Part shown: one piece after another, positions 4,841 through 22,404 of the stretch | How the letters are laid out: every line of letters begins with the position of its first letter | Numbering within the stretch: position 1 is the stretch's first letter | Origin: Minisyncoccota bacterium | GTDB lineage: Bacteria > Patescibacteriota > Minisyncoccia > Phycocordibacterales > CAIJYI01 | Direction: 5' to 3' | Assembly: GCA_023229825.1 (NCBI GenBank) | Contig: JALNYN010000004.1 | Span: forward strand, 1-59,880 | Length of the DNA stretch: 59,880 nt | Made by a program: the position numbers and the translations under genes | Notes under the pieces: generated by a model | What the model was told of the DNA's origin: nothing | Databases searched by the model: none | Seen by the model: only the letters and a program-made list of their open reading frames with translations

Positions 4841-5308
4841 CTAAAATGGTATTTCGTCCAAGTTGATCTCTTCGTCGGGATACTGAATGGTATCCACTTC
4901 TTGTTTTGGCGCACTTTGCGGTTTTTGACCGCCGTTTGATTGAGGCTGTTGATTCATTGGCGCGGCACCGCCTCCGGTTCCCGTCGGTCTCGGACCGAAC
5001 TGTACATGATCGGCGATTATTTCGGTGCGATAGTGTTTTACGTTGTCTTTATCCCAGCTTCTGGTCGTCATGCGTCCTTCAACCAATACCGAACTTCCTT
5101 TGGTCAAATATCTCGCCACATTTTCCGCCTGAGCTCCGAACACCACGATGTTGTGATAATCGGTTCCCTCTTGTCGAGCGCCGTTCTTGTCTTTCCAGAC
5201 GCGATTGGTCGCTACGGAGAACGTAGTAACTTTGGTACCCGATGGAATGGCTTTCATTTCCGGGTCTCTTGTTAAATTACCGATGACGATGGCTTTGTTT
5301 AAATACAT
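4841..5308 (-). CDS. ssb: Single-stranded DNA-binding protein
   Basis: OB-fold N-terminus MYLNKAIVIGNLTRDPE..., a Gly/Pro/Gln-rich linker and the acidic tip DEIPF. Confidence 0.95.
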   Translation of the reverse strand: MYLNKAIVIGNLTRDPEMKAIPSGTKVTTFSVATNRVWKDKNGARQEGTDYHNIVVFGAQAENVARYLTKGSSVLVEGRMTTRSWDKDNVKHYRTEIIADHVQFGPRPTGTGGGAAPMNQQPQSNGGQKPQSAPKQEVDTIQYPDEEINLDEIPF

Positions 5309-6025: not shown

Positions 6026-6808
6026 CTATATGTTAAAAGCGCGAAAAGCATTTCGCACCATCGCTTCTCGGACCATTTCGAGGTCTTGTTCTTTAATATT
6101 GGCAATGACCTTAACAACCTCTTCCACGTACACGGGTTCATTCCTTTTTCCTCGATACGGGACAGGGGCGACATAAGGACAGTCGGTCTCGGATAAAATT
6201 TTGTCCAAAGGGGCGTATTTTACCGTTTCGTCATAATTTCTGGCAAATGTCAGCACGCCGGTAAAAGAGATCGTAAAATCGAGATCAAAATATTTTTTTG
6301 CGGTTTCGGGGCCTTCGGAGAAAAAGTGGATGTTTCCGCGAAGTTTTTCGCTGTATTCTTTCTTTTTTGACTCCAAGATTTGGAGGAGATCAGGGTGAGC
6401 GTCGCGGCAGTGGATCATGAGAGGTAAAGCGTTGGAAACGGCCAGATCGATATGTTTTTCAAAAAGCGCGGTTTGCCGAACTGCTTCCTCTACCCTTTTC
6501 TCCTCCGGAACGCGGGAAAAATCGAGCCCGCATTCTCCGATCGCGACGACTTTCTTTTCACTCGCGAATTTTCGATAGATCGCTTCATCAAAAATTTCAT
6601 CAGCATCATCGGTCGGATGGAGTCCGATCGCGGCGTACAACCCTTCGTTTGCCCGTGCCAGCGTTATGGCGTCTTCTGACATTTTTCGATCGGTACCGAC
6701 CACCAAAGACCACACGCCGCGCTCCTTCATGCGCGACAAAACTTCCGCACGATCACCATCGAAACGCGCATCGTTGAGATGGGAGTGGGAATCGAAAAAG
6801 AGAGGCAT
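6026..6808 (-). CDS. tatD: TatD-family metal-dependent hydrolase/DNase
   Basis: N-terminal FDSHSHL motif, ...IGECGLD..., IHCRDA, ETDCPY. Confidence 0.9.
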   Translation of the reverse strand: MPLFFDSHSHLNDARFDGDRAEVLSRMKERGVWSLVVGTDRKMSEDAITLARANEGLYAAIGLHPTDDADEIFDEAIYRKFASEKKVVAIGECGLDFSRVPEEKRVEEAVRQTALFEKHIDLAVSNALPLMIHCRDAHPDLLQILESKKKEYSEKLRGNIHFFSEGPETAKKYFDLDFTISFTGVLTFARNYDETVKYAPLDKILSETDCPYVAPVPYRGKRNEPVYVEEVVKVIANIKEQDLEMVREAMVRNAFRAFNI

Positions 6809-7560: not shown

Positions 7561-9060
7561 TTATTTTCTCGGGAACAGTGGGGTATCCACAGTTTTTACC
7601 GTGAAAGATGTTGTATCGATTTTTGGCGAACCGAGAAGCTCGTGAATTTTTTCGGATGTTTCCGGCATGAACGGCGAAAGCATATCGGCTGCGGCGTTAA
7701 TTCCAAAAAGAAGGTTCGCTAAAACCGCTTCGGTCCTCTCTTTATCGGTTTTTACAAGTTTGTAGGGCTCATAGTCGGTGATGTAGCCATCGAGCCGTTT
7801 CAAGAGCACCCAAACGGTCTCGGCCGCTTTTCCGAGTTCGTATTGTTCCATGTGCCGGTCATACGTTGGTAAAATTTCCTCTTCGAGATATTTTTTTACC
7901 GACATGCCGTCTTTGAACGGCACCTCAACACCGTTCTTTTCTGAAATTTTTCCTTCAAAATATTGATTCGCCATTTTGAGAACGCGCGAGATCAGATTTC
8001 CGAGACTGTTGGCGAGATGAGAATTATACCCTTCCAGAAATTTTTCTTCCGTAAAATCGCTATCCTCAAAAAAAGAAATTTGAGAGATCAAATAAAATCG
8101 GAGGGCGTCTGTGCCGTATTTTTCTGCGAGCGAAAAAGGATCAACGACATTTCCTGTGCTTTTTGACATTTTTCGTCCTCCGCTGTTGATGAAACCGTGA
8201 ATGAGAATTTGTTTGGACGCGGGAAGACCGGCAGAAAGAAGCATTGCCTGCCACATCGCTGATTGCTGGCGGAGATTGTCTTTGCCCGCGACCTGCGTGC
8301 CCGGCCACCATGTATTGAATTTTTGTTCATCTTCAGGCCATCCGATAGCGGAAATATAATTGACGAGCGCATCGAACCACACGTACATGACGTGCGCTGG
8401 ATCATCCGGTACGGCGATCCCCCACGGCATTTTTTCTTTGAGGCGGGAGATGCTGAAGTCTTCGAGACCTCCTTCGACAAAGGTCCTGATCTCTTTCAAA
8501 CGCGATGCGGGCAAAACAAAATCCGGGCATTCTTTATATAATGAGAGTAATTTTTCCTGATATTTTGAAAAACGGAAAAAATAATTTTCCTCGTTGATGA
8601 CCTCTATGTCGCGCGTCGGGTGGATGGGACACTTTCCGTCGACGAGTTCGCTGTCCGTCTTTTCCAGTTCGCATCCGATGCAATACTTCACTTGATAATT
8701 CTTTTTGTAAATGTCGTCCGCAGCAAGGCACCGTCTCCAAAATTCCTGCGCCGCTGCGACGTGGTGTGCGTCCGTCGTGCGGATAAAATTATTATAGCTT
8801 AAATTCAGCGCGGTTTTCAGACGGTCGAACCTCGCGGCATATTCGTCCACATAGGCCTGTACTTCCATATTCTCTTCTTCTGCTTTGCGATAGATCTTTA
8901 CGCCGTGCTCGTCAGTACCGGTGTTAAAGAAAACTTCGTCTCCACATTTCGCTCGATAGCGCGCGATCGCGTCCGCGTGAACGATCTCCAAAGCAAAACC
9001 GATATGAGGATCGGCGTTTACATACGGAAGCGTAGTGGTGATGTAAAATTTTTCTGACAT
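7561..9060 (-). CDS. metG: Methionyl-tRNA synthetase (short form, no C-terminal tRNA-binding domain)
   Basis: TTTLPYVNADPHIGF (HIGH region) and KMSKSTGNVV. Confidence 0.95.
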   Translation of the reverse strand: MSEKFYITTTLPYVNADPHIGFALEIVHADAIARYRAKCGDEVFFNTGTDEHGVKIYRKAEEENMEVQAYVDEYAARFDRLKTALNLSYNNFIRTTDAHHVAAAQEFWRRCLAADDIYKKNYQVKYCIGCELEKTDSELVDGKCPIHPTRDIEVINEENYFFRFSKYQEKLLSLYKECPDFVLPASRLKEIRTFVEGGLEDFSISRLKEKMPWGIAVPDDPAHVMYVWFDALVNYISAIGWPEDEQKFNTWWPGTQVAGKDNLRQQSAMWQAMLLSAGLPASKQILIHGFINSGGRKMSKSTGNVVDPFSLAEKYGTDALRFYLISQISFFEDSDFTEEKFLEGYNSHLANSLGNLISRVLKMANQYFEGKISEKNGVEVPFKDGMSVKKYLEEEILPTYDRHMEQYELGKAAETVWVLLKRLDGYITDYEPYKLVKTDKERTEAVLANLLFGINAAADMLSPFMPETSEKIHELLGSPKIDTTSFTVKTVDTPLFPRK

Positions 9061-9125
9061 ATTTTTCTTCTTGTTTCTATTTTCTATTATCTATTTTCTA
9101 TTATCTATTTTCTATTTTCTTTTTT
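9061..9125. repeat. Tandem TTCTATTTTCTATTATCTATT word repeat (copy A2)
   Basis: ttctattttctattatctattttctattatctattttctattttc fills the metG/AI-2E gap and encodes the last codons (KKKIENR*) of the upstream gene. Confidence 0.75.
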
Positions 9126-10138
9126 TCCACATCATTCACCAGCTCCATAAGTACGGCGGCTAAAGGAACGGCAAGAATGAGCCCCATAAACCCGCCAAGC
9201 TGTGCCCCTACGATAAGACCGAGGATCACAATAATGGGAGGAACGCCGATAACCTTGCGGACAACGACCGGATAAATAAGGTGATTTTCAAATTGCTGGA
9301 CGAGAACGTAGAGCGCGATGGTCATAAAACCGAGAGTGGGGCTCGCGGTGAATCCGATCATGACGGCAGGGATCGCGGAGAGCGTAGGGCCGAATACGGG
9401 AATGAGCTCAAATACCGCGGTAATGAAAGCCAAAAGGAAAGCTTGTTTAACTCCGAGGATGAGGAGTCCGAGATACACGAGCGCTCCAACCAAAACACCG
9501 AGAAGTATCTGTCCTTGTATCCACTTCCCTATTTTATGCTGCGACCGATACCAAAGATCGATAACGTATTTTTCGTTTTTATCCGGAACAATGATCTTCA
9601 GGAAATTCTCAATTCCTTTTTCCTGAACGGCAAAATAAAAAGAAAGGACGAGCACCAGCATGAAATTGAAGAAGCTCCGGAAGACATCAGCGAGCGCGTG
9701 CGTTATGTTGCTGACATCAGCCCCTGATCCGGGAGAAAATGCGCCGACCATATTCTGGAGAATGGCTTTGTAATCGAGCACTTTCGGCCAGGGATTCCAC
9801 TGATCGAGAAAATTCAGATACTGAGGCAGTGATGCGAAAAATTGTGAAAAGTCGTCAAGAAGCGGCGGCAGGAAGAAATAGAACATTCCGGCAAAAAGTC
9901 CGACAAACAGAACGTACACTAAAAGCACGGCGGGAATGCGCGGTATTTTGTGACGAATAAACCATTTGGCGGCCGGCTCAACGCTTGACGCGACGACGAT
10001 GGAAGTGAGAATGACCAGTATGAGATCGGACAGCAGATATGCCACGTAGAAAAAAATAAGCACCAGTATCGTTTTAATGATAGTGCTGACGCTCACGTTT
10101 ATAATTATGTCCCCTTTTTGGTCTTTCATTGTCTGCAT
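9101..10138 (-). CDS. AI-2E (PerM/UPF0118) family transporter
   Basis: 345-aa polytopic membrane protein with the typical AI-2E layout and C-terminal ...GLILAVPLAAVL. Confidence 0.8.
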   Translation of the reverse strand: MQTMKDQKGDIIINVSVSTIIKTILVLIFFYVAYLLSDLILVILTSIVVASSVEPAAKWFIRHKIPRIPAVLLVYVLFVGLFAGMFYFFLPPLLDDFSQFFASLPQYLNFLDQWNPWPKVLDYKAILQNMVGAFSPGSGADVSNITHALADVFRSFFNFMLVLVLSFYFAVQEKGIENFLKIIVPDKNEKYVIDLWYRSQHKIGKWIQGQILLGVLVGALVYLGLLILGVKQAFLLAFITAVFELIPVFGPTLSAIPAVMIGFTASPTLGFMTIALYVLVQQFENHLIYPVVVRKVIGVPPIIVILGLIVGAQLGGFMGLILAVPLAAVLMELVNDVEKKKIENR

Positions 10139-16457: not shown

Positions 16458-19400
16458 TTATTTCTTCACCGCAAGTGAAAACTCCAGGTTTTCGATCTTT
16501 GAGAACGCGCCTTCAATCCCCTCCGCGAATTCAATAGTCCCGAAAAGCGTGGCTTTTTTGATCTCTTTTTCGAATTTTTTTACGAAAGCCGTCCCCTTCT
16601 CATCGGTCTCGACGACGAGCGTATGGGTTTGGTCGCCGGGATTAAGATTTTCTTTTTTTCGAAGTTCTTGAACATTTCTCGTAAACTCACGGAACATTCC
16701 TTCTTCAAGCAGAGCAGGAGTAATTTCCGTGTCGAGCGCTACTTTTTCGGGCCTGCCCTGCGAAGCCTCGGCGAAGGAGGGAATATCGGCGAAGGCGACA
16801 TCTTTCACATTCACGCGTTCCATAATGAGCGCGAGAAATTCTTTTCCGACAGGAACGAGGAACGAGGTTTTTTCAGAGAGCGGAAGTGTTATTTTTTTGA
16901 GTGGCTGGCGAACCTTCAAACCTCCTTTCGCACGCGCTTCAAGACCGAGAGAAACGATGTTTCGTGTTTTTTCCATGAGTTCGATGATCGGATCGTTCTC
17001 CAGTGTCTCGATGGTCGGCCAGCTTTCAAGGTGTACGCTTTCCTTTCCCATGGCCTGCCCTGAGCGAGCCGAATGGGTTTTCTGGTACGTTTCTTCGGCA
17101 ACGAACGGCATGAACGGGGCGATGATCTTTGAAAATTCTCGGAGTACGAATCTCATGGTTCCCAAAGCGCTTTTTTGCTCGGTATCTTTTCCATCCTTTC
17201 CTTTAATGCGCTCGCGCGAATTTTGGAGGTACCACGTCGAGAGGTCGTCGATAAAAATAGAGATCGGACGCGCCGCTTTTTCAAGCTCATTCTTCTCCAT
17301 CGCGTTCTCCACCTCAACGCGAACTTGTCCGAGCCGCGCGAATATCCATTCATCGAGTATATGAGAGCTTTTCGGAAACGATTCCCCTTCCTCATCGGCC
17401 GTTTGATACAACTCATAAAAAGCCAGAACATTTTCGAGACGAACAATGACTTTTTTGAAAATTTCGTCCACTCCTTTTTCGGAGAAATTGAGGTCCTCCC
17501 CGTGAACGGCGGGAGAAGAAAGCAGGTAATACCGAAGCGCATCGGCGCCGTATTTTTCGGCAACCATCATCGGATCGGGGTAATTCTTGAGGCGTTTGCT
17601 CATTTTTTGGCCGTCTTCCGCAAGAATCAGACCGGTGGTGATGACATTTTTGAATGACGATCTTCCAAAAAGTCCGACGGAAAGCACGAGCATGTTATAA
17701 AACCAGCCGCGCGTCTGATCCACCGCCTCGGCGATAAAATTTGCGGGAAAGTTTTTATGAAACTCATCTTCGTTCTCGAACGGATAGTGAAACTGCGCGT
17801 ATGGCATAGAACCGGATTCAAACCAGCAGTCGAACACTTCTGGAACGCGTTTCATCTGCCCTCCGGAAGCACAGTCGCAGGCAAAAGAAACCTCATCAAT
17901 ATAGGGACGATGAAGATTGAACTCGTAATCGTCGCCGTGCGGATATGGAACGAAAGAAATATCCATGACACCGGCGGTCTTCGCGTAGTCGGGCGTGTTC
18001 GTGCGAAGCTCATGTGCTTCCTCGTCGGTGAGCCCGCGCGACGTCGTATCGAGCATCCAGAGCACGTACTCATGGGTGACAATGAGAATATTCTTTCCTG
18101 TGTATTTTGAATCCGTTTCAAAAAGGAATTCCATCGCACGCATCCTGACATCGTGGATGTTCTCCCCTCCTTCCGGGCGCTTTGAAAAACGTTCCGTGAA
18201 AGAAGAAAAATACGAATGGTATTCATTGACATTCTTGCCGTTGAAATTCCCGGCGTTGATCTCGCGCAGACGCGGATCGAATATGATCTTATCATCGGAG
18301 ATGCCTAGTTTTTCCGCCACTATGGCAAGCGTTTCTTTCGTGCGAAGGAAGTCGGAGGCAAAAACAAGATCGAATTTTTCATTTTTTATTTCCTCCGCCG
18401 TTTCTTCCACTTGCTTTTTTCCTTTTTCGGTAAGATGCGTAGGGTTTTCAACGCGGGAACTCACCGTATTGGTCGCATTGCTTTCTGCTTCGCCGTGGCG
18501 CATGACCTTGTAAGAATTTTTCGGCTTTTTGTGCGCCTTCAGGCATTCTACAGAACCCACCACTTTCAGTTTTTTGCAGGCGTCGCATTTCCAAACGGGA
18601 ATTGGTGCGCCCCAATAGCGAGATCTTGAGATCGCCCAATCGCGCGCACCGAGGAGCCACTTGCCGAATCTGCCCTGCCCCATCGCTTCGGGAACCCAGG
18701 TAACATTTTTATTCGCTTCCACCATTTCATCGCGTATGGCGGTAACTTTTACAAACCATGAAGCGGCGGCGTAATTCAGAAGCGGCGTATCGCAACGCCA
18801 GCACAAAGGATACGAGTGCTCGATCTTTTCCTTTGAAAACAAGGTATTTTGTGCGGCGAGATATTTCAAAACTTCAATGTCAGCCGATTGAGTGTCGCCT
18901 TTTTTCTTCACCGGCATACCTGCGAAATCAGTGACCTCCGGCACGAACGTTCCGTCCATTTTGACATGCTGAATGAATGGCAGATTCCTTTCTTTGCCGA
19001 GGATCATGTCGTCTTCGCCGAACGCGGGCGCGATGTGAACGACGCCGGTTCCCGTTTCGGTCGTCACGAAATCGCCATGATAGATCTTCCAGCCGTTTTT
19101 CCAGTGCGGAATTTTTTTGTCGGAATGAAAATAATCGAAAAGCGGTTTGTACGATTTGCCGATCAGATCTTTGCCCGTGAGTTCTTCGATCATTTCATAC
19201 GCTTCATCTTTAAAAACATCAGCGACGCGCTCCTTTCCGACAATATAGAAGACATCGTCCGTCGAACTTTCGACTTTCGACTTTTGACTTTTGACTTTTA
19301 CATACGCGATCCCTTCACCGACAGCCAGCGCAACATTTCCCGGCAGAGTCCATGGCGTCGTCGTCCATGCCAGAACAAAAGTTCCCGGCTCGTCGACCAG

Positions 19401-20033
19401 TTCGAATTTTGCGGTAACCGAAATATCTTTCACATTCTGATAATTGAGCGTGACCTCGCTCGCGGCAAGGGTCGTTTCACACCGCGGACAAATATGCATC
19501 GGCTTGTATCCTTCATAGATCAGTCCTCTGTCGTACAGCGTTTTAAAAGCCCACCAGATGGATTCGGTGTATTTCCAGTCCATCGTCTTGTAGCTTTTCT
19601 CCATGTCGATCCATCGTCCCATGCGAGGAATGATCTTTTTCCAATCGGCATCATAGCGAAGCACGCTCGCTTTTGCGGCTTCGTTGAATTTTTCAACTCC
19701 GTACGTTTCAATATCTTTTTTGTGTTCCAGCCCGAGCTCTTTCTCAACCAGATTTTCGATCGGCAGTCCATGACAATCCCAGCCCCAAATTCGGCGAACA
19801 TACTGCCCTTTCATGGTGGCATAACGAGGAACAGCGTCTTTAAGAACGCTCTGCAAAAGATGTCCGTAATGTGGCAACCCCGTAGCAAAAGGAGGTCCGT
19901 CATAAAACACGAACGGTTCATTTCCCTGTGTTTGTTCAAGCGATTTCTCAAAAATATGGTTTTCGTTCCAAAAAGCAAGGGTTTTTTCCTCGCGTTCGGA
20001 AACTTTTGATCTTTTAGGTGTTTCTTCGTTCAT
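16458..20033 (-). CDS. ileS: Isoleucyl-tRNA synthetase (type 2) carrying an inserted histidine-phosphatase (PGAM-like) domain
   Basis: PPFATGLPHYGHLL, the CP1 editing region, DCWFESGSMPYAQ, DQTRGWFY, KMSKRLKNYPDP. An insert of about 200 aa carries RHGEAESN...SDFLRTKET...LREINAGNFNG...IVTHEYVL. Start taken at MNEETPK. Confidence 0.95.
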   Translation of the reverse strand: MNEETPKRSKVSEREEKTLAFWNENHIFEKSLEQTQGNEPFVFYDGPPFATGLPHYGHLLQSVLKDAVPRYATMKGQYVRRIWGWDCHGLPIENLVEKELGLEHKKDIETYGVEKFNEAAKASVLRYDADWKKIIPRMGRWIDMEKSYKTMDWKYTESIWWAFKTLYDRGLIYEGYKPMHICPRCETTLAASEVTLNYQNVKDISVTAKFELVDEPGTFVLAWTTTPWTLPGNVALAVGEGIAYVKVKSQKSKVESSTDDVFYIVGKERVADVFKDEAYEMIEELTGKDLIGKSYKPLFDYFHSDKKIPHWKNGWKIYHGDFVTTETGTGVVHIAPAFGEDDMILGKERNLPFIQHVKMDGTFVPEVTDFAGMPVKKKGDTQSADIEVLKYLAAQNTLFSKEKIEHSYPLCWRCDTPLLNYAAASWFVKVTAIRDEMVEANKNVTWVPEAMGQGRFGKWLLGARDWAISRSRYWGAPIPVWKCDACKKLKVVGSVECLKAHKKPKNSYKVMRHGEAESNATNTVSSRVENPTHLTEKGKKQVEETAEEIKNEKFDLVFASDFLRTKETLAIVAEKLGISDDKIIFDPRLREINAGNFNGKNVNEYHSYFSSFTERFSKRPEGGENIHDVRMRAMEFLFETDSKYTGKNILIVTHEYVLWMLDTTSRGLTDEEAHELRTNTPDYAKTAGVMDISFVPYPHGDDYEFNLHRPYIDEVSFACDCASGGQMKRVPEVFDCWFESGSMPYAQFHYPFENEDEFHKNFPANFIAEAVDQTRGWFYNMLVLSVGLFGRSSFKNVITTGLILAEDGQKMSKRLKNYPDPMMVAEKYGADALRYYLLSSPAVHGEDLNFSEKGVDEIFKKVIVRLENVLAFYELYQTADEEGESFPKSSHILDEWIFARLGQVRVEVENAMEKNELEKAARPISIFIDDLSTWYLQNSRERIKGKDGKDTEQKSALGTMRFVLREFSKIIAPFMPFVAEETYQKTHSARSGQAMGKESVHLESWPTIETLENDPIIELMEKTRNIVSLGLEARAKGGLKVRQPLKKITLPLSEKTSFLVPVGKEFLALIMERVNVKDVAFADIPSFAEASQGRPEKVALDTEITPALLEEGMFREFTRNVQELRKKENLNPGDQTHTLVVETDEKGTAFVKKFEKEIKKATLFGTIEFAEGIEGAFSKIENLEFSLAVKK

Positions 20034-20126
20034 AATATCGAATAGTAACACGAAGAGAGCTTTATGGAAATATTGACGGACAAGCCGCGACAATGACTGA
20101 TGACTATGACGACATCATGACCACAG

Positions 20127-20169: not shown

Positions 20170-20622
20170 TTATTTTTTTACGGATGGCGCATATATTGCA
20201 CCCAAGCCGCTTGATTGACGAGTTACATCTAATATATGAACACCCGCAAGTTTAAATAGCCCCTTAAACACATCCCGCGCTGTTTGTTCGTTTTCTTCTA
20301 ATCGCTTCTTTAGCTCCTTCACTTCCGCTTTTTGTTCGTTAAGTTTATTAATGATCATATCGGTCCCCGGAGAAGACGGAAATACACTATAATGACCATC
20401 GGGCTCGCAATTGGGATACTGAGGATCGGTAATCTCAGCAGTACAAGCCGCATGATATTCAACAATCTTTGAAACGATGCGCGATTTGCCGACATCGCCG
20501 ACATAAGTCAAAACACCCTTCCAACAGCCGGTCGGAAAACTTTTTCCTTCGACAACAATATAAACGGTTTCCCCAATTTCGGGAATGTTATTTTGACAAA
20601 ATGTTAAGGTGCCAATACTCAT
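20170..20622 (-). CDS. Hypothetical protein (150 aa) with a C-terminal coiled-coil-like segment
   Basis: Start at MSIGTLTF, preceded by AAGGAGAAAG. No family recognised. Confidence 0.6.
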   Translation of the reverse strand: MSIGTLTFCQNNIPEIGETVYIVVEGKSFPTGCWKGVLTYVGDVGKSRIVSKIVEYHAACTAEITDPQYPNCEPDGHYSVFPSSPGTDMIINKLNEQKAEVKELKKRLEENEQTARDVFKGLFKLAGVHILDVTRQSSGLGAIYAPSVKK

Positions 20623-20730
20623 TTCTTTCTCCTTTTTTGCATGTTTTCTCGACTGAAAAAACACGCGAATCGCGCACTCGCGACCTGGCAAGTACATCAA
20701 TGCGTTTATATCACAAACGAAGTTTTGCGT

Positions 20731-22404
20731 CTACATTTTTTCCGGCGTTGGTATTCCGAGAAGCGTCAGACCATTTTTGAGAACGATCCCGACGGCTTCG
20801 ACGAGCGCGAGGCGATATTCAGTGTGTTCGTTTCCTAAAATTTGATTTTGTTCGTAGTAGGCGTTGAACTCGCGACAGACTTCGGTGAGGTAGGTGGTGA
20901 TGTAGTTCGGGGAGAGTTCTTTTCTGGCGAGAACGACAGCATTCGGCAATCCTTCAAAAAGAGCTTTTTCCAATGCCGATACCGGTTCCCCTAGGGCGGT
21001 CCTCGGGGATTCCCCGAGGACCGCCCTAGGGGAAATTTCCGCTTTTCGCAGGATCGACTGGGTTCTTACGTAGGCGTATTGAAGATACGCGCCGGAATCG
21101 CCTTCGAACGATAAGGCTTTTTCAAAATCAAAAATAATATCTTTTCCGGGAGATTGTTTCAGGATCGAGTATTTTATTCCCGCGATGGCGATCTCTTCCG
21201 CAACTTTTCCTTTGTGTTCGATCTCTCGATCGGCTATCTTGTTCATCACCATAGCGGAAAGCGCGGAAATGAGGGATTCGGCGGTGATGACATCGCCAGT
21301 CCGTGAAGACATCTTCCCTGTCGGCAGGCGCAACATGCCGTGTGAAATATGCTTGGTCCTTTTTTCAAGATCGGGAAAAACAAGCGACATCGCGCGAAGG
21401 AGGACTTGGAAATAATCATTTACTTCGTTCGCGGTGACGATGATCGATTCGTCGTACTGATACGCCTCATTTTTTATTTTCGCCAGTCCCAGTTCTTTCG
21501 CTTCATACGTCGGCAGACCTTCGGAATTGAGAAATACGCGCGTATGCAAACCGTGTTCTTCTCCGGGAAAAATAACGGCACCGTCGCTTTTTTGAAAAAC
21601 TTTTCCAAGATTTTCCTCAACGATCTGCTTGCCAAGTACCCCTGTTTCGCTCTCGAAGAAATAATAGTCGAAATGCGTTCCAAGTTTTTTGTAAATATGC
21701 TCGAAATATTCCAAACTGATCTTTTTTCCTTCGTCGTAGATCTTATTTATTTCCGGATCGCTCCGGTCATAAATTTTCTTATTGATCTCCTGAATTTCAG
21801 TTTTGTGTTCATCATACGCCTGCGCCCCCACAGAATACGCCTTTCCCAAGTCGGCTGCCGTTATCGTCGTGTTATCGGTCATCGTCATCCGTAATCCGTA
21901 TATTGCCTTCGCCACGTGCATGCCGACATCGCCCTGATAACACGCGCGCTTTACTTCGGCGCCGCTTGCGGAAATAATGCGCGAGATCGCCTCGCCGAGC
22001 GTGTTGGTCATTAAGTGTCCCACATGAAATTCCTTGAACGGATTCGGATCGGTATATTCAATGATCACTTTTTTTTCCGCTTCGCTCGAATTCTTGCCGT
22101 ACTCCGTTCCCTTCTCCAAAATCTCGCCTATGTGTCCGCGCACCGTTTCGTCTTTCAAATAAAAATTAATGAATCCCGGTCCGGCAATTTCCATTTTCTC
22201 CACGGCAAAGTTGATCTCCGATCTTCCCAATTCTGAAACCAAAAATTCCGCCAATTCTTTCGGATTCTGCCCGCGATCTCTTGCGTTCATCATCGCGACA
22301 TTCGTCGCATAATCCCCGAAACCTATTGGTTTTTCCACCACAAAATCTCGCGCGTCAGCGCCCAAAATTTTCATTATTTCCTTTCGTATCGTTTCTTTTA
22401 TCAT
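20731..22404 (-). CDS. argS: Arginyl-tRNA synthetase
   Basis: ...FKEFHVGHLMTN (HIGH-like), an anticodon-binding C-terminus ending ...GIPTPEKM. Confidence 0.95.
   Translation of the reverse strand: MIKETIRKEIMKILGADARDFVVEKPIGFGDYATNVAMMNARDRGQNPKELAEFLVSELGRSEINFAVEKMEIAGPGFINFYLKDETVRGHIGEILEKGTEYGKNSSEAEKKVIIEYTDPNPFKEFHVGHLMTNTLGEAISRIISASGAEVKRACYQGDVGMHVAKAIYGLRMTMTDNTTITAADLGKAYSVGAQAYDEHKTEIQEINKKIYDRSDPEINKIYDEGKKISLEYFEHIYKKLGTHFDYYFFESETGVLGKQIVEENLGKVFQKSDGAVIFPGEEHGLHTRVFLNSEGLPTYEAKELGLAKIKNEAYQYDESIIVTANEVNDYFQVLLRAMSLVFPDLEKRTKHISHGMLRLPTGKMSSRTGDVITAESLISALSAMVMNKIADREIEHKGKVAEEIAIAGIKYSILKQSPGKDIIFDFEKALSFEGDSGAYLQYAYVRTQSILRKAEISPRAVLGESPRTALGEPVSALEKALFEGLPNAVVLARKELSPNYITTYLTEVCREFNAYYEQNQILGNEHTEYRLALVEAVGIVLKNGLTLLGIPTPEKM
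20988..21032. repeat. Perfect 22-bp-arm GC-rich palindrome inserted in frame in argS
   Basis: cccctagggcggtcctcgggga t tccccgaggaccgccctagggg is 45 nt (15 codons) and encodes SPRAVLGESPRTALG. Confidence 0.85.

Follow-up and report, generated by a model that had tools for sequence, protein, structure and literature searches.

A histidine phosphatase domain inserted in, or encoded beside, an isoleucyl-tRNA synthetase of Patescibacteriota

Histidine phosphatases of the PhoE (1h2e/1ebb), PspA (4ij5), CobC (6e4b/6nru) and TIGAR (3dcy) type are free-standing enzymes of ~190-210 aa that share an R-H-(N)-R-E-H catalytic set and a small helical cap. Here, we describe a domain of this kind that lies within the ileS gene of a Minisyncoccota bacterium, on a stretch of DNA of 59,880 nucleotides (GenBank assembly GCA_023229825.1, contig JALNYN010000004.1, positions 1 to 59,880; hereafter the window). 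The domain resembles the known enzymes in fold (TM-score 0.71-0.80), size, cap and catalytic set at 20-26% sequence identity, and differs from them in being embedded in a tRNA synthetase or, in related genomes, encoded beside it. Its host, an isoleucyl-tRNA synthetase (IleRS), has the domain order of P. megaterium IleRS2 (8c8u/8c8v) and T. thermophilus IleRS (1ile), with HIGH and KMSK(R/S) signatures, an editing domain in connective peptide (CP) 1, a zinc-knuckle CP3 and type-2 C-terminal domains; whereas known type-2 IleRS have ~5-30 residues at the site in question, the window enzyme has ~200.

A second enzymatic domain nested in the catalytic body of a synthetase has precedents in the CP1 editing domain and in the NF040702 family 'ileS_w_GNAT' (PMC13114784). 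The window IleRS differs from both in its predicted chemistry, phosphomonoester hydrolysis, and in its site, CP3; membership of NF040702 was rejected (342 bits vs a cut-off of 1999). The bifunctional RNase H/acid phosphatase (PRK07238, Rv2228c type), the third-best NCBIfam match of the insert (69 bits vs a cut-off of 326), also joins a CobC-like histidine phosphatase to a nucleic-acid enzyme, but there the fusion is terminal and the partner enzyme a different one, whereas the window case is an internal insertion. SAH hydrolases that reverse toxSAS 3'-pyrophosphorylation and the pairs HipA-GltX and HipT-TrpS are alike in concept only: there, charging is stopped by a phosphate that sits on the tRNA CCA end or on a class I synthetase and must be taken off again. 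They have no sequence relationship to the insert. We found no description in the literature of the phosphatase insert, of its alternation with an adjacent gene or of its recurrence in valyl-tRNA synthetases (ValRS), and the insert is mentioned neither in a 2026 survey of the domain architectures of 96,219 IleRS (10.64898/2026.02.03.703510) nor in a 2026 census of domain insertions. Database labels read 'class I tRNA ligase family protein' and, for fragments, 'histidine phosphatase family protein'. Both component families are thus well known, while the phosphatase module in a synthetase, its alternation with an adjacent gene and the ValRS recurrence appear to be undescribed.

The window IleRS and its inserted domain

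The ileS gene lies on the minus strand at 16458..20033, as do all window features described below. Its open reading frame (ORF) spans 16458..20093, and the likely start codon, an ATG at 20033, yields a protein of 1191 aa. This protein scored 857.9 bits against the ileS equivalog TIGR00392 (cut-off 621.4), which places it among the IleRS. Its closest solved structure was P. megaterium IleRS2 8c8u (E = 6e-219), with 1ffy, an IleRS1, at E = 1e-89; nearer to IleRS2 than to IleRS1 and carrying DUF5915 at its C-terminus, it is a type-2 enzyme. It is also complete: the HIGH signature HYGH (aa 55-58, 19860..19871), the KMSKS signature KMSKR (aa 810-814, 17592..17606) and the CP1 editing motifs WTTTPWTLP (223-231) and GTGVVH (328-333) are all intact. 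The editing motifs are conserved in 118 homologues, and H55, G57, H58, K810 and K813 do not vary among 118 sequences.

An earlier note on this DNA, made from its letters alone, had claimed that an intact branch-1 histidine phosphatase of about 200 residues is inserted in frame in a type-2 IleRS. The profile searches it proposed matched both families on the 1191-aa protein: the tRNA-synt_1 match (E = 7.7e-136) is split into two stretches, and a His_Phos_1 (PF00300) match covers aa 511-677 (18003..18503) with E = 4e-33 and 115.2 bits, against a gathering cut-off of 21.7, followed C-terminally by Anticodon_1 and DUF5915. In the alignment with 8c8u, query residues 501 and 701 fall on 477 and 482 of the chain, so that ~200 extra residues stand at a single point; the interval named in the note, 17923-18545, corresponds to aa 497-703. 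Judged by this gap, by the short loop of insert-less relatives, by the AlphaFold2 (AF2) model and by Foldseek, the domain with its two short linkers comprises aa 502-700 (17934..18530). Relatives fall into two length classes at the insertion point, with 7-31 residues in insert-less enzymes and 204-215 in insert-bearing ones.

The catalytic set of the insert is complete and nearly invariant among 172 inserts. The RHGEAESN motif (512-519, 18477..18500) supplies Arg512, the nucleophile His513 and Asn519 (100%, 100% and 96% conserved), and is followed by the second catalytic Arg, R564 (18342..18344, 100%), the proton-donor Glu, E591 (18261..18263, 99%), and the second catalytic His, H654 (18072..18074, 99%). 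The remaining motifs, LTEKGKKQ (534-541), SDFLRTKET (560-568), LREINAGNFNG (589-599) and ILIVTHEYVL (649-658), are likewise in place, so that all five motifs quoted in the note were recovered where it had put them, within aa 512-658. The profile score, the RHG motif with its Arg/Glu/His set and a dPGM/PhoE-type fold all identify the insert as a branch-1 histidine phosphatase. More specific identities were rejected on NCBIfam cut-offs: dPGM (NF038349, 82 bits vs 225; TIGR01258, 33 vs 82), CobC (TIGR03162, 76 vs 163), PspA (NF045917, 60 vs 350) and SixA (TIGR00249, 37 vs 74.5).

The insert is under purifying selection. Compared with its three closest relatives, non-synonymous differences per site (pN) were 0.165-0.18 and synonymous ones (pS) 0.78-0.87, with pN at about the level of the host domains; as synonymous sites are saturated (pS 0.7-0.87), we state selection as pN well below pS and give no dN/dS ratio. 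No stop codon or frameshift interrupts the insert, and its GC content is similar to that of the flanks and unchanged over the junctions. Pfam returned no Hint/intein or endonuclease family for the window protein at E <= 0.01, in line with the note's statement that intein signatures are absent; the intein reading was rejected, since His_Phos_1 and the short linkers account for the whole insert. We have little doubt that the phosphatase domain is intact, real and selected. In a separate observation, the phage family phrog_12933 (profile of 197 aa, function unassigned in PHROGs) matched the insert with E = 1e-21 and a stand-alone relative (P0031) with E = 1e-24, which indicates that phages encode similar small histidine phosphatases.

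Structure prediction, which the note had also proposed, was carried out with AF2 and has the insert fold as a separate, well-ordered domain of the PhoE/PspA/CobC type with confidently modelled linkers. The full-length model, built from a 118-sequence alignment, reached a mean pLDDT of 89.9 and a pTM of 0.84, with values of 91-97 for the blocks of the insert and 91-92 for its two linkers; the insert modelled alone reached a pLDDT of 96.6 and a pTM of 0.92. The best Foldseek match of the insert was PhoE 1h2e (TM-score 0.80, E = 2e-13), and PspA phosphoserine phosphatase, CobC and TIGAR were also found. The whole model matched IleRS2 8c8v (TMt 0.82), and none of the solved structures matched by Foldseek had the composite IleRS-phosphatase architecture.

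The note had assigned the insertion to the connective peptide region. This holds, and the alignment specifies the element as CP3 rather than CP1: window residue 499 aligns to residue 496 of C. albicans IleRS, in which the CP3 sub-domain comprises residues 473-534, and in T. thermophilus IleRS, CP3 is a zinc-binding element (PMC7191050). The insert separates the two Cys pairs of the zinc knuckle, CxxC on its N-terminal side (C483/C486, 18576..18587; 82% and 78% conserved) and CxC on its C-terminal side (C719/C721, 17871..17879; at least 90% conserved), which puts it at the tip of the Zn-knuckle hairpin. About 25 residues N-terminal of the insertion point runs the CP2-CP3 linker ARDWAISRSRYWG (aa 463-475, 18609..18647), the counterpart of 453-ARDWNVSRNRYWG-465 in yeast IleRS. 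In yeast, this linker and the HIGH and KMSKS motifs together build the reveromycin pocket, in which the CCA end of the tRNA binds (PMC7955072). Reading three-dimensional proximity from chain connectivity, we infer that the phosphatase lies near the CCA/ATP pocket.

Inside the synthetase or next to its gene

The insert is not peculiar to the window genome. All of the 120 best full-length homologues (54-83% identity, 1150-1250 aa), drawn from NCBI, JGI, ENA and Logan and including Yonathbacteria, Lloydbacteria, Paceibacterota and Minisyncoccota, carried PF00300. When 1.84 billion representatives at 50% identity were searched exhaustively with HMMER, 181 proteins scored E <= 1e-30, mostly IleRS matched at about residues 450-740, and the insert was present in more than 100 clusters at 50% identity. 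As judged by these homologues, the insert is a family trait of many Parcubacteria/Paceibacteria.

The same data bear on the possibility that the insert is an artefact or a selfish element, be it a chimeric assembly, an intein or a recent mobile element. We regard this as vanishingly improbable: the same junctions recur across more than 100 independent assemblies with 39-85% identity, Hint and endonuclease domains are absent, the GC content matches that of the flanks and the insert is under purifying selection. A chimeric assembly, the concern for which the note had suggested read mapping, is ruled out without read data because the architecture recurs in independent NCBI, JGI, ENA and Logan assemblies. 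On long ENA contigs of 64-270 kb (proteins P0005, P0013 and P0015), the fused gene is broken into short pieces whose last residues are out of frame; these may be assembly indel errors rather than real split genes.

The best relatives of the insert outside IleRS were stand-alone Patescibacteria proteins of ~188 aa with 37-46% identity to it, and their genes sit between argS and an insert-less ileS. At one locus (L001), the phosphatase gene ends at 4884 and ileS begins at 4885, leaving a gap of 0 nt. Scanning one genome for each GTDB species with a narrow alignment of the stand-alone proteins as the seed, we found 536 relatives and classified the best 80 loci together with one more. The phosphatase was encoded as a stand-alone gene directly upstream of ileS in 41 of the 81 loci and inside ileS in 37; the other three had another arrangement, one of them cut by a contig end. 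Gaps in the stand-alone class were mostly -14 to +21 nt, and the genes often overlapped. The five catalytic residues are conserved in the stand-alone proteins as in the IleRS inserts. These results show that the phosphatase is obligately associated with IleRS, either as an insert or as an abutting gene.

The IleRS partners of the stand-alone phosphatases are all type 2, with 32-57% identity to the window enzyme; those at 32-36% were considered as type 1 and rejected, being divergent type-2 enzymes. In a neighbour-joining (NJ) tree of IleRS, fused and stand-alone states interleave, with at least six changes in 100 of 100 bootstraps, and an NJ tree of the phosphatases required at least four. The closest pairs of stand-alone-type and inserted IleRS are 62-68% identical, and some stand-alone-type enzymes are nearer to an inserted one than to any other of their own type. 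Such trees are crude and gene exchange among Parcubacteria could inflate the number of switches, and we claim neither a direction nor an exact number; the sequences nonetheless suggest that switches between the two states happened several times.

Every IleRS-phosphatase fusion that we found is located at CP3. N-terminal read-through fusions were seen neither among the HMMER matches nor in the 81 loci, though the stand-alone gene abuts the start of ileS. That all fusions are at CP3 and none is N-terminal argues that position matters, and CP3 placement of the phosphatase indeed seems to be important.

In loci L005-L027, from Staskawiczbacteria and relatives, clustered stand-alone phosphatases adjoin two IleRS2 lineages with ~33% and ~55% identity to the window enzyme (low-resolution NJ tree), and the distance matrices of IleRS and phosphatase correlate weakly (r = 0.31). 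This suggests that ileS was replaced or exchanged there while the argS-phosphatase-ileS order was kept. In a few genomes, a further gene is wedged between stand-alone phosphatase and ileS (L011:5570-6160, L016:6199-6825, L007:5931-6947 and L012:1333-1872). These genes encode a CYTH triphosphatase-family protein (L011), an HD_3 phosphohydrolase (L016), a pyridoxal phosphate-dependent enzyme and a Cas2-like/PaaX_M protein; phosphohydrolases account for two of these. Among insert-bearing IleRS, P0310 has an extra P-loop kinase-like domain (AAA_18/AAA_33, aa 747-863), and in P0205 this second site holds a GNAT acetyltransferase, while a REP-associated tyrosine-transposase-like domain lies within the editing domain. 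P0309 carries a tandem His_Phos pair in the CP3 site, and in P0304 the catalytic domain is followed by a second His_Phos.

The window shares the argS...ileS synteny of the stand-alone loci. Its upstream neighbour is argS (20731..22404; Pfam tRNA-synt_1d, DALR_1 and Arg_tRNA_synt_N), in the conserved argS-(phosphatase)-ileS order of related loci. Between the two genes, at the position of the stand-alone phosphatase in relatives, lies an ORF of 176 aa (20170-20700). Pfam, PADLOC and PHROGs returned no match for it, and it does not resemble the phosphatase; it was rejected as a counterpart of the phosphatase on these grounds. About 8-10 kb downstream of ileS are the genes of a compact methionyl-tRNA synthetase of 499 aa without insertions (7561-9060), a TatD-family DNase (6026-6808) and an AI-2E family transporter (9101-10138); metG, ileS and argS are thus three class I synthetase genes inside 15 kb. 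ARAGORN found no tRNA or tmRNA gene in the window (1-59880), and Rfam matches at the gathering score were likewise absent.

A parallel in valyl-tRNA synthetases

Histidine phosphatase domains also occur in ValRS. One ValRS (P0272) carries four His_Phos domains, and 69 of the 119 best ValRS relatives found with it, including those from Gracilibacteria, Peregrinibacteria and further lineages within the candidate phyla radiation (CPR), carry one to three; the proteins concerned are P0272 and P0329-P0446, and the locus L087:4001-7270 belongs to the same observation. Most of these domains lie 12-25 residues past the WxISRQxxWG motif, at the homologue of the IleRS site, and some lie just before the motif; because they are found on either side of it, the two sites bracket one active-site linker. 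At the two loci with an insert-less valS that were examined, no stand-alone phosphatase gene was found next to it. ValRS appears to have gained its phosphatase independently of IleRS, in another group of bacteria.

The ValRS domains are also an argument for a mainly non-catalytic module, that is, a phosphate-binding, tRNA-binding or regulatory sensor appendage on a histidine-phosphatase scaffold. Their tandem arrays hold two to four copies, and the full catalytic set is present in 53 of the 82 domains, the other 29 having no Glu or no second His. Synthetases often recruit RNA-binding appendages, which is in keeping with such a role. A mere scaffold is not expected to keep its five catalytic residues, as the 172 IleRS inserts and the stand-alone proteins do, and we consider a mainly non-catalytic module quite improbable.

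Candidate substrates and meaning

The intact catalytic set under purifying selection, the confident autonomous fold and the wide phylogenetic spread bear out the view of the earlier note that this is a functional-looking enzyme-in-enzyme fusion. It is likely that the phosphatase is a dedicated and catalytically active partner functionally coupled to IleRS. Since histidine phosphatases cleave phosphomonoesters, its candidate substrates are a phosphate on the tRNA end, a phospho-serine of the synthetase or a small molecule such as AMP.

Our tentative explanation of the whole, which we hold to be the best available without giving it even chances, is that the phosphatase is placed at CP3 in order to clear a charging block at the active-site pocket. 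Its substrate would be something bound at or near the ATP/tRNA-CCA pocket, and the enzyme would strip from this ligand a phosphomonoester that blocks charging. We infer that the phosphatase must sit at CP3, directly after the linker that lines the pocket. The leading candidate for the ligand would be a phosphorylated tRNA acceptor end, carrying either a 3'-phosphate after cleavage or a 3'-pyrophosphate of the toxSAS type, which would regain its 2'/3'-OH just ahead of aminoacylation. Pyrophosphorylation of the tRNA 3' end is an established toxin mechanism, with tRNA-specific cases among the examples (10.1101/2021.04.30.441581, PMC11559606). Among the roles that the earlier note had listed, phosphorylated tRNA ends would fit the insertion site best; taken by itself, an acceptor-end phosphate as the substrate is a possibility raised by analogy, and a rather doubtful one. 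Also in favour of this explanation, the stand-alone phosphatases are strongly basic (median isoelectric point 9.7).

Several points weigh against a role at the tRNA end. [quoted passage not shown] The closest structures to the insert are small-molecule phosphatases, the insert reached the cut-off of no functionally defined NCBIfam subfamily, and PADLOC gave no match. To our knowledge, no histidine phosphatase acts on RNA ends. Furthermore, it is not obvious how a phosphatase on IleRS alone would rescue other tRNAs, and it is hard to see why a single tRNA species should be protected.

Some of these points would suit a phosphatase of small molecules (for instance phosphoserine, a phosphoglycerate, a sugar phosphate or else a nucleotide like the AMP that the synthetase sets free) that is attached to IleRS for co-expression, stoichiometry or local product removal in a minimal genome. 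All of the nearest sequence and structure relatives, PhoE, PspA, CobC, TIGAR and dPGM, are small-molecule enzymes, and the phosphohydrolases sometimes wedged before ileS (CYTH in L011, HD_3 in L016) and the P-loop kinase-like domain of P0310 can be read in the same sense. A metabolic enzyme, however, would need no particular internal site, and N-terminal read-through from the abutting gene, an easier route for evolution, was not seen. In addition, the link, which has lasted through deep divergence, is specific to IleRS and ValRS, and, as noted, no subfamily cut-off was reached. We regard a small-molecule enzyme as an unlikely, though serious, alternative.

A third candidate is the synthetase itself: the phosphatase might be a self-repair enzyme that removes an inhibitory phosphate from IleRS, for instance from a Ser of the KMSKR loop, put on by kinases of the HipA type. 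The histidine phosphatase superfamily includes the protein phosphatases SixA, PGAM5 and Sts-1. Its place on the catalytic body, close to where the active site opens, and its one-to-one coupling to the synthetase, as a fusion or as an abutting and often overlapping gene, would suit the domain to such a function, and other class I synthetases are kinase targets, as HipA phosphorylates GltX and HipT phosphorylates TrpS (PMC6581861, PMC8262856). On the other hand, we know of no kinase that targets IleRS or ValRS, no kinase gene was conserved in the examined neighbourhoods, PADLOC gave no match, and the domain has a PhoE-like cap instead of an open SixA-like site. Self-repair by dephosphorylation is, in our judgement, improbable.

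In practical terms, the domain carries an annotation risk, as metabolic reconstructions of CPR bacteria could mistake it for a glycolytic phosphoglycerate mutase. The alternation between fused and adjacent forms offers a clean experimental handle, because both forms can be expressed and assayed on defined substrates. Synthetases belong to the most thoroughly studied enzymes; their accessory domains, which serve editing, tRNA binding and signalling, are thought to be well catalogued, and the coupling to a phosphatase implies a step in charging or protection that is outside the textbooks. It is conceivable, if speculative, that IleRS in Parcubacteria and ValRS in Gracilibacteria/Peregrinibacteria gained a third activity, the stripping, beside the CCA pocket, of blocking phosphates from the acceptor end or from their own KMSKS loop. 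If this is true, tRNA charging would include a repair or anti-toxin step of its own, of a kind described for no synthetase so far.

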